Notes: generated by a model from the letters alone, not told the origin. A stretch of 64,000 bases of DNA from Candidatus Atabeyarchaeum deiterrae (GCA_037310415.1 CP147780.1:2592001-2656000), one strand, 5' to 3'. Counted from the first letter of the stretch, positions 48,761-60,936 are shown. Numbers and translations: made by a program.

Positions 48761-48874
48761 TCACATCTGGAAGCCTGTTTTGCCAGCACCCCATTTCGTC
48801 AAAGCAGTCTTAAGCTCCTCATGATCCTCAGCATAATCACTAACCTTAATCCCCTGCATCACAGCATCAATAGC
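48761..48874 (-). repeat. rbcL-like 3'-end repeat, copy 1
   Basis: Encodes AIDAVMQGIKVSDYAEDHEELKTALTKWGAGKTGFQM-TGA. Confidence 0.92.
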
Positions 48875-49016
48875 CCACCTGATGTTGCCTGTATGGATTT
48901 CGGCGCCTTGTGTCATCTGGCGAGTGCGCCTGCAGTGTGTTTCCCAAGAGGGATGGTCTTGGTTGACGCACAACGTTTAAGTAGCGGAAAGTTGGTGGGA
49001 TAATTGGTGGGATTAT

Positions 49017-49259
49017 ATGACCGACGAAGCTGTTATAGATGACAAAGGAAGGGTCGCCATTCCGAAACGGATACGGAACAAACTGGATCTGCGAGAAGGT
49101 ACTCGAGTAAAACTGGAACTCGAAGAGGGGAGAGTAGTAATAAGGAAACCCGTCGACCCAGCGGAATTCATCGACAAAATGGAAGGATTCATAAAAGAAG
49201 GTTCCCCCATTCAGAAAGCCGACCCCCTCAAACTCAAGGAGATATGGGAGAGACAATGA
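49017..49259 (+). CDS. AbrB/MazE-type antitoxin
   Basis: IDDKGRVAIPKRIR..L..EG. Confidence 0.88.
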   Translation: MTDEAVIDDKGRVAIPKRIRNKLDLREGTRVKLELEEGRVVIRKPVDPAEFIDKMEGFIKEGSPIQKADPLKLKEIWERQ

Positions 49260-49672
49260 TCTACGTAGATGCCAACTTCTGGATCTACTGGTTCGACCAG
49301 CGGCTACCAGAACATAAGCATGTTTTGAGACATATGAGGCAAGTTATCCAAGAAGGTGTCATTCTAAATGTCGTCACCCTCATGGAGGTAGCTCACTATT
49401 TCCGCAATTTAGCGGCAGAGGAATTTCGCGAGAAGCTTGACACGATTCAGAGCTTGACCACGTTGAAGGTCGTCAGCCTTGATCTGGATCTAGCTAAATC
49501 GGCATTCGACAAACTAGCGAAATATGCCAAGATTGGAGTCGGAAGCAGAGACAGTGTTATCATAGCGACGATGGAATCGGTGGGTACCAAGAGAATAGCC
49601 ACCCACGATAGGGTCTTTACAAGAATCAAAGGACTAGAAGTCATCGACCCGATTCCAGCCAACCTTGCATGA
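49256..49672 (+). CDS. vapC: VapC PIN-domain toxin
   Basis: YVDAN, EV, DSVIIAT, THD; ATGA overlap with the antitoxin. Confidence 0.88.
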   Translation: MIYVDANFWIYWFDQRLPEHKHVLRHMRQVIQEGVILNVVTLMEVAHYFRNLAAEEFREKLDTIQSLTTLKVVSLDLDLAKSAFDKLAKYAKIGVGSRDSVIIATMESVGTKRIATHDRVFTRIKGLEVIDPIPANLA

Positions 49673-49730
49673 CTAACAAAAGCGAAATCCAAAAGAAGAT
49701 GTGGAGAGTTTATTGATTCTCATCAGGTTC

Positions 49731-49784
49731 TCACATCTGGAACCTGTCTTACCAGTACCCCACTTCGTCAAAGCGGTCTTAAGC
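49731..49784 (-). repeat. rbcL-like 3'-end repeat, copy 2 (short, 1-nt deletion)
   Basis: tcacatctggaacctgtcttaccagtaccccacttcgtcaaagcggtcttaagc, encoding LKTALTKWGTGKTG. Confidence 0.9.
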
Positions 49785-49799
49785 ATTGTTCGCGCATGT

Positions 49800-58352: not shown

Positions 58353-59300
58353 GTGTTCCTGAATATCGCAACTAATGATCTGAGGGCGGCAAAGCTCCTG
58401 CTTGCTGGGAAGCTTTACGCGCAGTCCATTTTCTATATGGAGCAAAGCGTGGAGAAGGCGGTCAAGTCGCTAGGAATAAGGCGTGGCGACATTACGCCTA
58501 AGGAAGCGAGACGGTATGGTCATAGACCATTACGCTACTATCTTAAATTCTTTGAGAATATCAAGACACAGATTAATGAGACACAAATAGAGACTGAAGA
58601 CATGGAAAAGAAGCACCCGATACTGGCTGACCTCTTTGTAGAACTCGGCATCTCTAGAATTGGAGCTCGATTGAATAAGGGAAAGAAGATGTATGAAGAT
58701 CTATTGAAATTGGCTTCGAGGTTTGAAGAAGAAGAGAAGCAAGATCCCGTGAAAGAAGAAAGAGCATTCAACATCGCAATTTCTGGCAGACCACTTGACC
58801 GTTATATTACTTGGTGGCGAGAACAAGAAAAACAACTCTACCGTTCTTGGCGCACGATTGGCCAGATCGAATCAAAGTCTTACAGAGATGAACTCGAAAG
58901 AGACATTCCAAGATTCCAAGAGATATTAAGAAAGCTTACTCCAAGACTGATTGCAGAACTACCTTCTGAAGACAAACTCACAACGCAAGGCTTAGAAAAA
59001 GCCATTGAAGGACTCCAAAAACCCAAAACCCTATCCCAGATCGACCGATTTGCATTTGAGTACGCAGGAAACAAGTTGTACGACGAGACTCAAGAATTCT
59101 TCTTCATCGGATCGCTGTTCTACTTAGCTCTACTGTTCTTTCCTCACGCCACTCGCGCTAGGTATCCAGATGAAGGGGTTGAGAATCCACTGTCTTTTTA
59201 TAGTGCCAGAAACCCACTAGTCCGAAGACTCGCCCAATTCATAGAAATTGCCGAGCACACACTGGATTTCATGAATAAATGGATTTTGGGGAACCCTTAG
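58353..59300 (+). CDS. HEPN-domain protein with a large helical insertion
   Basis: N-terminal A..DL.AA..L...LY.QS.F..EQSVEKAVK..GH; C-terminal HATRARYPD. Confidence 0.7.
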   Translation: MFLNIATNDLRAAKLLLAGKLYAQSIFYMEQSVEKAVKSLGIRRGDITPKEARRYGHRPLRYYLKFFENIKTQINETQIETEDMEKKHPILADLFVELGISRIGARLNKGKKMYEDLLKLASRFEEEEKQDPVKEERAFNIAISGRPLDRYITWWREQEKQLYRSWRTIGQIESKSYRDELERDIPRFQEILRKLTPRLIAELPSEDKLTTQGLEKAIEGLQKPKTLSQIDRFAFEYAGNKLYDETQEFFFIGSLFYLALLFFPHATRARYPDEGVENPLSFYSARNPLVRRLAQFIEIAEHTLDFMNKWILGNP

Positions 59301-59354
59301 CACACCACTCAACATAGAGAGCATTAAGCCACGTCCGACGACAATTAATACGCC

Positions 59355-59464
59355 CATTCTAACCCTGTTTTACCAGCGCCCCACTCAGTGAGAGCGGTCT
59401 TCAGCTATTCGTGCTCCTCAACTTAATTAGTGACTTTGATGCCTTCCGTCACCGAATAAATAGC
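59355..59464 (-). repeat. rbcL-like 3'-end repeat, copy 8 (most degenerate)
   Basis: Encodes AIYSVTEGIKVTN*VEEHE*LKTALTEWGAGKTG. Confidence 0.82.
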
Positions 59465-59544
59465 TTCCCAAGAACTACCAAGGTCACACAACGCGATGCA
59501 CAATAATGTACTGACGTCCGCGATCATGAGGCTCAGTTGCTTTT

Positions 59545-60564
59545 CTACACTTTGCCTCGCAAGACTTCTTCTGCGTATTTCACCAACAACTTCGTGATCA
59601 GAAGCACGCTCTCTGCATCTGCTCTCGTGACCACAACATCCTGTGGTTGATATTTCGGAGATTTCTTGAAGTCTTCTAAGTGCAAGTCGACGGATGAAAG
59701 ATCATTGAATAATGCGCACGCGCGAGACCATTTCACTCCATAGGCAAAAGTGCTTTTCCCAAGTTTTTCCCCCATCATCTTGTCAAGAAGACTCCCGACT
59801 TCTCTGCAATTAGCGTAGACTCCCTTTGTGTTCCACTGTCTAAAGCAGTTCTCTGCGTCTTCCACGTAGGCCCATGCTTCCTTAATGAGCCTCTCACCGC
59901 TTGGAATGCGAACAACGAAATACTCTCCAAGTCCTAGCTTCGGGGCAAAATCATTGATCCAGTCGGCAGAAGTTATCATCAGGTCACGGTTATAATGAGT
60001 GAGTCTATATGCAATGAAGCTTCGAGAAGTCCCTTCGCCAGTAAGAAGCTTGGGTTCGTTGGCGACTTGAGGGCGCATCCCCTGCTGTATGTGTATCAAT
60101 GGCGAGTATGGCGTGTCGCCATAAACTCCACGGATCTCTTGCTTAGCCAATCCCAGTGAACTGGGAGGTACAGCGTACACAGGAGAGATGGAAGCACGAT
60201 TCTCGGACGAAACAGTATGGAGGTGCAATGCTATTTTAACATCACCTTTTCTGTCTTCCATTCGCCGTGTCTCAAGATATTCAAGATCCAACGAAGTCAA
60301 GGCGATAACGAGCGTAGCTCTCCAAGTCTGCTTGGTTGGCGTCTGACGTTGAATCGAAAGATCTGTTGCCGCGACTTCGCCATACAAACCTTCCTGCAGA
60401 AGCAAGCTCCTAGCACCCAGCATCTTCTTATCATCAGTTTCGATATAACCATCAAGCCACAGAATCGCCTCTTCACGAATGGCATAAGTGATCTCTAGAT
60501 CAAACGCAAGGGCTGGAAGAGTCAGTTGATCATATGGTCTGATGCTTATCTTCTCCAAATCCAA
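59545..60564 (-). CDS. Hypothetical protein with possible C-terminal HEPN-like helical domain
   Basis: 339 aa ORF with SD; AW.YVEDAE..F...ANCR..H..ADAE..L tail. Confidence 0.6.
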   Translation of the reverse strand: MDLEKISIRPYDQLTLPALAFDLEITYAIREEAILWLDGYIETDDKKMLGARSLLLQEGLYGEVAATDLSIQRQTPTKQTWRATLVIALTSLDLEYLETRRMEDRKGDVKIALHLHTVSSENRASISPVYAVPPSSLGLAKQEIRGVYGDTPYSPLIHIQQGMRPQVANEPKLLTGEGTSRSFIAYRLTHYNRDLMITSADWINDFAPKLGLGEYFVVRIPSGERLIKEAWAYVEDAENCFRQWNTKGVYANCREVGSLLDKMMGEKLGKSTFAYGVKWSRACALFNDLSSVDLHLEDFKKSPKYQPQDVVVTRADAESVLLITKLLVKYAEEVLRGKV

Positions 60565-60876
60565 GTTTTCACCCCTCCTCTGACGGTCAGGGATAGAACG
60601 TAGCGATTCTATTTCAATACGATCCTATTAACAATGTCGTATCCAAAGGACAATTGAGTTTGTTGACCGCATGAACGATCATGATAGACGCTTACAAGCT
60701 AAGTGCTTTAGCGCAACATTCTTCAATATTTTTAAAAACTCAGTGCGTCGAACGTAGTTTCAAGGTTCTAATTGAATTAAAGAATCACCTAGAAGCATGA
60801 TTAGTTAGTCACCAATCGGCATTCAAGAGCCGAAACGATAAAGAAGAAGGGAATTTACTGGTTCCGTCTAGCTTCC

Positions 60877-60936
60877 CTACATCTGGAAACCTGTCTCACC
60901 TGCACCCCACTTAGTCAGAGCAGTCTTTAGCTCCTC
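60877..60936 (-). repeat. rbcL-like 3'-end repeat, copy 9 (short)
   Basis: Encodes EELKTALTKWGAGETGFQM-TAG. Confidence 0.9.

Follow-up and report, generated by a model that had tools for sequence, protein, structure and literature searches.

Probable gene-end replacement and related systems

Mobile open reading frame (mORF) elements of fungal mitochondria carry an endonuclease gene that travels with a foreign C-terminal segment of its target gene; the foreign segment replaces the native one, which is left downstream (PMC3630166). Between the inserted and the native end, most differences are silent, and the events have been read as horizontal transfer between relatives (PMC3630166). In atp6 of Allomyces macrogynus and in atp6, atp9, cox2 and nad3 of Glomus, the resulting order is gene body, inserted C-terminal segment, endonuclease gene and native segment. 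Here we describe an archaeal locus with nine displaced 3′-ends of a single gene, best described as encoding a RuBisCO-like protein (RLP), in Candidatus Atabeyarchaeum deiterrae. The window, i.e. the whole stretch of 64,000 nucleotides that was analysed, corresponds to positions 2592001-2656000 of the closed 2.76-Mb genome of this archaeon (G000), a relative of the Asgard group, and DNA of this locus occurs in freshwater-sediment and wetland metagenome runs.

Like the locus described here, chromosomal integrons consist of long rows of cassettes with one to five genes each, in many cases a toxin-antitoxin pair; repeats separate the cassettes, whose content varies from one related genome to another. 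Integrons encode the tyrosine recombinase IntI beside the attI site, and their attC sites are imperfect inverted repeats that are conserved in structure rather than in sequence. Unlike integrons, the present array has neither an IntI gene beside it nor an attC-type imperfect palindrome; its delimiters are direct repeats conserved in sequence and made of the neighbouring gene's coding tail and terminator, and each insertion would rewrite the end of that gene.

Archaeal integrative elements target the 3′-distal parts of protein-coding and tRNA genes, supply a replacement end with a stop codon and re-use the same site to form tandem arrays, all of which is shared by the present locus (PMC6563490). 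The gene for elongation factor 2 (EF-2) is a target both of these elements (PMC6563490) and of the process discussed here. Such elements rely on tyrosine recombinases with short and identical attachment (att) sites, or on casposases, which generate target-site duplications; the present locus contains neither a recombinase nor a casposase, and its long repeats have diverged. In one account, homing endonucleases encoded by free-standing genes in T4-like phages spread through a double-strand break whose repair co-converts the flanking sequences (PMC2790892). The genes for Seg and Mob of these phages and for the PD-(D/E)xK / EDxHD homing endonucleases I-Ssp6803I and I-Bth0305I also lie between conserved genes, and the nuclease domain discussed below is predicted to resemble I-Bth0305I in fold. 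Phage homing leaves no duplicated gene end. Here, the DNA-binding part of the enzyme is built from tandem helix-turn-helix (HTH) units, and its cleavage activity is predicted.

Nine displaced ends of a RuBisCO-like gene

The resident RLP gene lies on the minus strand at window-equivalent positions 71320-72664 (L005:11320-12664), 7.3 kb past the window edge. It is on the same strand as the array and directly upstream of it, 10.4 kb upstream of the nearest displaced copy; its own end occupies 71320-71481 and its stop codon is TAG. A comparison of motifs by eye with the form III enzyme of the same genome shows that the gene keeps KPK, KDDE, GK, SGG and GGGIH but reads MGHM and LLDP where HVHR (R295) and LHTG (H327) are expected, leaving incomplete the active-site set of a true form III large subunit (KPK, KDDE, H294-R295, H327, K334, SGG and GGG). 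The PF00016 profile scores only 102 bits on the 390-amino-acid upstream frame, the tail being in another frame. Relatives of the gene are named DK-MTP-1-P enolase by JGI and 'RuBisCO large subunit C-terminal-like' by NCBI, and their hosts appear in the databases as Thor-, Loki- and Heimdallarchaeota, Theionarchaea and Hadarchaeales. Judged by these motifs, the array-adjacent gene is better called an RLP gene than a true rbcL; a separate intact form III rbcL at genome position 200775 is unrelated to it. Strong purifying selection acts on the resident tail, which is intact; its ratio of nonsynonymous to synonymous substitution rates (dN/dS) is 0.02-0.065.

A repeat search and tblastn with the resident tail detect exactly nine minus-strand copies of the tail KTALTKWGxGKTGFQM in the window, at 48761-60939; the first base of the K codon of KTALTKW is at 48811, 49780, 53239, 54286, 56112, 57001, 57997, 59401 and 60927. 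In the genome outside the array, tblastn finds no further gene-end copies except the resident end and the unrelated rbcL. Copy 1 (48715-48886), the farthest from the gene, retains 41 codons and the stop codon TGA at 48761-48763, behind which a hairpin and a T-run make up its 3′ tail. About 17 codons are left of copy 2 (49689-49789), which has a 1-nt deletion in the Phe codon, ends in TGA at 49731-49733 and has a T-run tail. Copy 3 (53148-53341) comprises about 50 codons, reaching up to the P-x-G codons just after IHAH; its stop now reads TGG and a T-run tail follows. The 22 codons of copy 4 (54192-54307) end in TAA at 54236-54238, preceded by a change of M to I and followed by a T-run tail, while copy 5 (56062-56208), with about 48 codons, contains an internal TAG, stops with TAG at 56062-56064 and has no conserved tail. 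Copy 6 (56903-57097) is the best preserved, with 44-48 codons, 93% amino-acid identity to the resident end and a T-run tail, although its stop now reads TAT. Copy 7 (57938-58081) has about 44 codons and reads FQL-L-G-K and then TAG, i.e. TTA stands in place of the stop and TAG lies three codons further on. Copy 8 (59357-59467) is the most decayed, with two internal stops and a degenerate end. Copy 9 (60835-60939), nearest to the gene, keeps 19-20 codons and the stop TAG at 60877-60879; around this stop it matches the resident end without a difference over 33 nt, made up of the last 18 coding nt, the stop itself and the 12 nt of tail that follow it.

Marks of decay are of several kinds: in-frame stops in copies 5 and 8, a frameshift in copy 2 and loss of the stop in copies 3, 6 and 7. 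A tail with a hairpin and a T-run, about 45 nt after the stop, is present in six of the nine copies (1, 2, 3, 4, 6 and 9), and in copies 1, 2 and 6 it ends in GG. At this T-run the repeat ends fairly sharply on its 3′ side; its 5′ boundary is ragged, the copies covering 17 to about 50 codons and never going beyond the IHAH codons. Copy length is 50-190 nt and identity 62-96%, without any stretch that is the same throughout; the 33 nt shared by copy 9 and the resident end, and by these two only, are the longest identity.

We consider it reasonably probable that the array is a record of serial 3′-end replacement of one RuBisCO-like gene, the replacements probably being triggered by a nuclease. 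In each event, a foreign block would have arrived from a related archaeon, led by the donor's gene tail, stop codon and terminator and followed by cargo. Recombination within the shared coding tail would fuse the incoming tail to the body of the resident gene, keeping the gene whole, and the previous tail would persist downstream as a non-functional remnant whose 5′ edge is ragged; repetition would yield ten modules in a row, the newest adjoining the gene. The trigger would be a site-specific break made by a multi-HTH PD-(D/E)xK nuclease and repaired from a module-bearing allele, as happens with the mORF elements of fungal mitochondria. The tails would differ mainly silently because each had been functional coding sequence in one lineage or another prior to its displacement, and the frameshifts, lost stops and replacement changes would have arisen after displacement. 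At the locus itself, the target gene is kept whole by a replacement 3′-end and the displaced tails lie downstream. Such a process would provide archaea with a route to stack foreign genes at one site without an integrase, and the former gene ends would form a dated trail of who exchanged DNA with whom.

A predicted multi-HTH nuclease beside gene ends

The newest module of the array encodes a 461-amino-acid protein with five or more HTH repeats (L005:4987-6372). Its C-terminal domain is modelled by AlphaFold with a pLDDT of 87, and Foldseek matches the model with a probability of 1.0 to Bax1, the R2 retrotransposon endonuclease, R.BspD6I, Can2 and the homing endonuclease I-Bth0305I. D36, E49 and K65 of this domain do not vary. 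DUF559, Phage_endo_I and DUF790 match in Pfam with sub-threshold scores only, and a sequence search against solved structures gives a marginal match to Bax1 only (E 0.033). By its predicted fold, the protein belongs to the PD-(D/E)xK nuclease superfamily. Its protein family is a rare one: 1.84 billion representatives include 31 clusters that match at E<=1e-10, and among 41 phylum relatives it is confined to this archaeal family, save for one marginal match (E 5e-4) in G022.

The nuclease genes are convergent to the 3′-ends of conserved genes. On contig L024, whose RLP gene is 87% identical, the gene end (1346-1507) is followed by a convergent nuclease gene (1575-3218) and a displaced copy of the gene end (3916-4071, E 8e-14), and the nuclease gene is the only sizeable one between the resident end and the displaced copy. 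In the closed genome of a sister genus (G001), a TldD-like gene ends at 11395 of L033, with a nuclease gene at 10049-10927 and a displaced 23-codon copy at 9781-9849 (E 3e-6) that abuts the start of the next gene. The EF-2 gene of the same genome (L032:8472-11468) is a weak case, with a 15-codon remnant at E 0.005, and L038 and L039 repeat this locus rather than adding independent ones. On contig L042 (1668-7794), from the metagenome of another study, a HerA/DUF87 ATPase and a nuclease that are 54% and 29% identical in amino-acid sequence to those of the newest module adjoin a displaced RLP gene end with the upstream flank found at copy 3.

A displaced end of EF-2 is also found in the A. deiterrae genome, where 41 codons at genome positions 126475-126597 lie 2.5 kb downstream of EF-2, which ends at 129148; the two ends are 84% identical in nucleotide sequence, differ mostly silently and share the same TAG, and a 712-amino-acid open reading frame lies between them. 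This island also holds a paralogue of the nuclease (123949-124971) and a pair of 280-nt repeats at 115493 and 122801, and no displaced end is found distal to the nuclease in this island.

L024, the TldD-like gene in G001 and the newest A. deiterrae module all show the order known from mORF elements, and EF-2 in G001 shows it weakly; as in mORF elements, the inserted and native ends in A. deiterrae differ mostly at silent sites. It is this agreement of the minimal elements with the mORF anatomy that favours break-and-repair homing with an end swap and the dragging along of cargo. The mORF nucleases are LAGLIDADG or GIY-YIG enzymes that cut alleles free of the element and are often fused in frame to the host gene, in contrast with the free-standing, convergent multi-HTH PD-(D/E)xK gene seen here. 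Unlike mORF elements, moreover, the present ones reside on an archaeal chromosome, with nine or ten iterations at one gene and modules that bear cargo and mostly lack a nuclease. By analogy, then, the array elements are a counterpart of the mORF family and not a member of it. The multi-HTH nuclease is the best candidate for the driver, the gene tail would be what it cuts, and the older cassettes without a nuclease gene would have entered by the same route. If it is the driver, it would represent a new modular DNA-targeting enzyme and the elements the first prokaryotic counterpart of mORF. Taken together, the locus is likely to be a recombinase-free, iterated gene-end replacement array whose nearest known counterpart is found in fungal mitochondria and whose driver is likely a new modular nuclease.

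Arrays in related genomes

About ten copies form a parallel array in the sister genus G001. A fragment of an array with four copies is present on contig C94 of G002, and in G033, which belongs to another family, the copies measure 111, about 86 and 17 codons. G001 and A. deiterrae have in common an ICMT gene at 81% nucleotide identity, the MNT-HepT cassette together with both flanking copies at 75%, and a LigB gene at 86% in inverted orientation. An orthologue of copy 3 with the same 30-nt upstream flank is found in G001 (L018 9043-9189) and on metagenome contig L042, and some array junctions are therefore old.

Several observations weigh against serial replacement by a homing nuclease. The ICMT, MNT-HepT and LigB cassettes (75-86% nucleotide identity) stand in a different order in G001, with LigB inverted, which suggests a shuffling of single cassettes that one-way homing alone does not predict. 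G001 also has gene-end fragments at L022:4987-6278 and L023:4963-5118, about 0.9-1 Mb from the gene, and either cassettes or parts of the array have moved in this genome. The nuclease gene is present in only the newest of the ten A. deiterrae modules and absent from the G001 array, and three of the seven nuclease homologues examined (L034, L028 of G002, and the neighbour of an FGGY kinase on L041) have no detectable displaced copy beside them. A HerA-like ATPase often accompanies the nuclease, which could therefore be a defence cargo rather than the driver of insertion. Finally, a comparison of nearest-neighbour identities over 48 and 108 nt, covering all copies of A. deiterrae, G001, G002 and L024, identifies no clear donor; the nearest neighbours are mostly other copies of A. 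deiterrae or of the sister genus, and a donor cannot be assigned as the pieces are too short and near saturation.

The variable order and orientation of shared cassettes would fit an insertion of small circular cassettes by a tyrosine or serine recombinase whose gene lies elsewhere or has been lost; the att site would be formed by the gene tail and terminator, and its repeated use would build the tandem array. We regard this integron-like alternative as unlikely. It would fit small cassettes rich in toxin-antitoxin genes, as in chromosomal integrons, the fairly sharp 3′ boundary with a T-run tail in six of the nine copies, and the precedent of archaeal elements that integrate into 3′-distal parts of protein genes, supply the stop and form tandem arrays (PMC6563490). 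Profile scans of the whole genome, however, detect no PF00589 or PF16795 recombinase within 500 kb of the array, the three PF00589 matches in the genome all being more than 600 kb away, and no recombinase is found among the array proteins, the ten A. deiterrae modules, the G001 array, G002 C94 or L024, either within or near the arrays. The repeats themselves, 62-96% alike over 50-190 nt and without an invariant core, differ from archaeal att sites, which are identical over 13-69 bp (PMC6563490); their 5′ edges are ragged, and the minimal elements contain a nuclease gene only.

Silent divergence of the displaced ends

Under serial replacement, the displaced ends would once have been working coding sequence, and the pattern of substitutions bears on this directly. 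Across the 16 codons shared by all ten sequences, the minimum numbers of changes at first, second and third codon positions are 7/1/18 (chi-square against equal thirds, p = 2e-4), or 5/0/13 when copy 8 is left out. The mean proportions of synonymous (pS) and nonsynonymous (pN) differences over these codons are 0.47 and 0.067, a ratio of 0.14, and pairwise dN/dS over a 39-codon region ranges from 0.10 to 0.46 in the seven long copies. In the tail, Leu is encoded by TTG, CTT, CTG and CTC, Ala by GCT, GCA and GCG, Thr by ACG, ACT and ACC, Gly by GGT and GGC (and GGG in copy 8) and Lys by AAA and AAG. Directly behind FQM, copies 1 and 2 read TGA (copy 2 only once the 1-nt deletion is gapped), copy 3 TGG, copy 4 TAA, copies 5 and 9 TAG, copy 6 TAT and copy 7 TTA, copy 8 being degenerate there; every copy that can still be read has its own stop codon. 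The preliminary description of this stretch had reported a largely synonymous divergence with these codon alternatives and all three stop codons, and in these points it is borne out, an even spread of changes over the codon positions being refuted.

Between the copies and the resident end there are 68 silent and 65 replacement differences, a silent share of 0.51. Neutral decay of both sequences predicts 27.9 silent differences and is rejected (pooled binomial p = 2e-14), and with it the notion that all copies derive from the resident allele by such decay. A less extreme model has to be considered, in which each insertion of cargo duplicated the resident tail locally, the copy then decaying while the resident gene accumulated silent changes, without any foreign allele. 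This vertical history also yields an excess of silent differences, so that the excess alone is no proof of foreign origin; with the resident end constrained and the local copies decaying, 46.1 silent differences, a share of about 0.35, are expected. Copies 3 and 5 taken alone fit such local decay (dN/dS of 0.46 and 0.42 against the resident end). The pooled share of 0.51 does not fit it (p = 7e-5), although all pairs have the resident sequence in common and the pooled p-values therefore overstate significance; copies 6 and 7 each reject the model alone at p of about 0.02. Neither does divergence grow with distance from the gene: copies 6, 3 and 1 are 91-93% identical to the resident end over 108 nt, and copy 8, the second nearest to the gene, is at most 75% identical to any copy. 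Three different stop codons among well-preserved copies speak in the same direction, and a copy-6-like end is in use in a co-occurring strain. A purely vertical record is accordingly improbable.

This strain provides the most direct evidence for former working ends, which comes from Logan contigs of four runs mapped on the locus. A 318-nt contig of run X2, at a depth of 2.1 compared with 45 for the main strain, joins the gene body (91% identity) to the 5′ edge of copy 6, the join passing through 30 nt that read IHGHPDGPAA; copy 6 and the resident end are strongly different across the 48 nt at the join. A co-occurring strain thus has an intact gene with a copy-6-like end. The contig (L035:4286 joined to L035:18711) represents a related wetland strain in which the gene lacks the 28-nt insert described below and has a copy-6-like tail. 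Joints at 4265>18528 and 18571>1 and loose ends at 4153 and 18528 in the mapped contigs were considered as deletions and rejected; they are due to cross-mapping of copies 1 and 2, which lie outside the mapped stretch, onto copy 6 and the resident end.

The silent excess beyond the half-constrained model, the lack of an order with distance from the gene, the stops and 3′ tails of the individual copies and the X2 contig together support the view that the copies are former working ends. The preliminary description had gone further and proposed that the copies served as functional rbcL termini in other strains, that they are not local duplications and that the array records horizontal exchange within a lineage. 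A former function as gene ends is supported by the silent excess, the individual stop codons and the X2 contig, albeit for a gene that is RuBisCO-like and not rbcL; the exclusion of local duplication holds for the pooled data and for the lack of an order with distance, and does not extend to copies 3 and 5; and exchange within the lineage is supported by the silent share of 0.51 and the copy-6-like end of the co-occurring strain, although no donor can be named.

That the copies function in the cell today, as alternative 3′ exons joined at the RNA level or as selected terminators or insulators, is very improbable: a putative tRNA-type mini-intron of the resident gene does lie just 5′ of the region covered by the copies and six of nine copies have a T-rich, terminator-like tract, but five of nine cannot encode a correct tail (owing to internal stops, a frameshift or a length of only 17-22 codons), no half-intron motif is found upstream of any copy, and selection acting on DNA or RNA signals would constrain third codon positions as well.

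Putative mini-introns in the RuBisCO-like gene

After the codons for GSGGG, the resident gene contains a frame-breaking insert of 28 nt (L005:11482-11509, minus strand; window-equivalent 71482-71509). It is found without gaps in contigs of runs from two studies, and an insert at the same site is present in G001 (L007), with a compensatory change in its hairpin. In A. deiterrae, the insert has the layout GCGG / AAA / 7-bp hairpin / CCGC / AAT, and its removal restores the reading GGGIHAHP. The geometry is that of a bulge-helix-bulge motif, a 4-bp helix flanked by two 3-nt bulges on opposite strands, in which a cut after the second base of each bulge restores the frame; in the minimum-energy fold of the A. 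deiterrae insert, the 3′ bulge has 6 nt and the outer helix is relaxed. Downstream of the insert, the tail shows a dN/dS of 0.02-0.065 at a pS of 0.56-0.69 in the shifted frame, a low ratio which argues that the tail is translated. By its geometry, the insert would be a tRNA-type bulge-helix-bulge intron, and its removal from the RNA is supported indirectly by the downstream purifying selection, the compensatory change in the hairpin and the two EndA genes of the genome (at positions 215557 and 625628). Among archaeal coding genes, cbf5 is the only one recorded with an intron of this kind (PMC2738675).

Other explanations for the insert fare less well. Separate translation of the tail was rejected, there being no ATG, GTG or TTG in frame in either genome, as was a +1 frameshift at AAT-TGA, which would add nine residues to the conserved GGGIH loop. 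A ribosome hop of the gene-60 type is unlikely in that there is no matching landing codon, and a pseudogene is excluded by the dN/dS downstream of the insert. A run of aragorn with the intron option returned 24 tRNA genes, several with implausible introns, and was not used.

Relatives carry further putative mini-introns, all on the minus strand: one of 31 nt at DIMI|GSGGG (L024:1290-1325), one of 31 nt at SYSPIT|GVSP (L025:5560-5595) and one of 32 nt at PAPYG|KAPLL in G033 (L021:1450-1485). These three inserts are unrelated in sequence and obey the same bulge-helix-bulge cutting rule, the conserved protein being restored each time, a pattern that points to repeated, independent intron gains in the last quarter of one gene. 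A second insert in G001, of about 22 nt, lies at AGA|xSYSP (L018 ~18770-18800, minus strand); its hairpin stands between an ACA and an AAA bulge, and if it were spliced by this rule, the protein would have Leu in place of the Trp of A. deiterrae. Mini-introns occupy five different sites of the gene across close relatives.

In both lineages with arrays, the intron stands at the 5′ limit of the displaced copies, and this position suggests that the introns may split the target of the nuclease. A possible, more tentative extension of serial replacement is that the elements form an undescribed archaeal homing class, in which an HTH-array nuclease cuts the 3′ regions of housekeeping genes and swaps in silent-variant ends together with cargo, the mini-introns being a counter-move of the host. 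The targets would include the RLP gene, EF-2 and the TldD-like gene, integron-like arrays would build up over time without a recombinase, and the mini-introns would split the DNA target of the nuclease while sparing the protein. It is a long-standing idea that archaeal introns persist by protecting genes from mobile elements, and the link to tRNA-type introns in a coding gene makes this idea testable with one gene and one enzyme.

Cassettes, newest module and flanks

Between copies 1 and 2, a cassette at 49017-49672 encodes, on the plus strand, an AbrB/MazE-type antitoxin (49017-49259; PF04014, 1.7e-9) and a PIN toxin (49244-49672; PF01850, 6e-15). The next cassette (49800-53011, both strands) holds an ICMT/PEMT-type membrane methyltransferase (49800-50441, minus), an S-adenosylmethionine (SAM) methyltransferase (50546-51349, plus), a secreted or membrane protein of 207 amino acids (51557-52180, plus), a PIN toxin (52428-52805, minus) and an AbrB antitoxin (52802-53011, minus). 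An MNT nucleotidyltransferase antitoxin (53528-53809; PF18765, 6e-18) and a HepT/HEPN toxin (53806-54177; PF01934, 3e-30) make up the plus-strand cassette between copies 3 and 4 (53528-54177), and a flavodoxin (54453-54941, minus) and a LigB-type extradiol dioxygenase (55178-55996, plus) that between copies 4 and 5 (54453-55996). The cassette between copies 5 and 6 encodes a single 174-amino-acid protein without a Pfam match (56294-56818, plus), followed between copies 6 and 7 (57121-57767, minus) by a PIN toxin (57121-57594) and a VapB-like antitoxin (57507-57767). A 315-amino-acid protein with a HEPN domain (58353-59300, plus; PF05168, 6e-9) lies between copies 7 and 8, and a 339-amino-acid protein with no family assigned (59545-60564, minus) between copies 8 and 9. 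In total, the cargo comprises three VapBC-type pairs, an MNT-HepT pair, a lone HEPN protein and two methyltransferases, as well as a secreted protein, a flavodoxin, a LigB dioxygenase and two proteins of unassigned family.

The newest module, which adjoins the resident gene, extends over 10.4 kb to window-equivalent 71300 and has genes on both strands. In its part within the window (61172-64000), it encodes a 159-amino-acid protein (61172-61651, minus) and most of a HerA/DUF87-type ATPase of 595 amino acids (from 62241, plus, ending at 64028); past the window edge follow the multi-HTH nuclease, unassigned proteins and an Eco57I-type restriction-modification enzyme (L005:8318-11023). The corresponding gene-proximal modules of G001 encode a glycoside hydrolase, a NIPA-type transporter and a hydrolase.

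On the distal side (window stretches 44684-45430 and 45750-48604), synteny with G001 is limited to a 248-amino-acid membrane protein (69% nucleotide identity). An RsgA GTPase and two GNAT acetyltransferases between this protein and copy 1 have no blastn match in the corresponding stretch of G001, and the array may therefore reach beyond the last recognisable copy. One of the distant gene-end fragments of G001 is a two-copy mini-array with an open reading frame of 165 amino acids between the copies. The 339-amino-acid protein between copies 8 and 9 has a 46%-identical paralogue in the newest module (L005:7188-8213, plus), the two thus lying in adjacent modules in opposite orientation.

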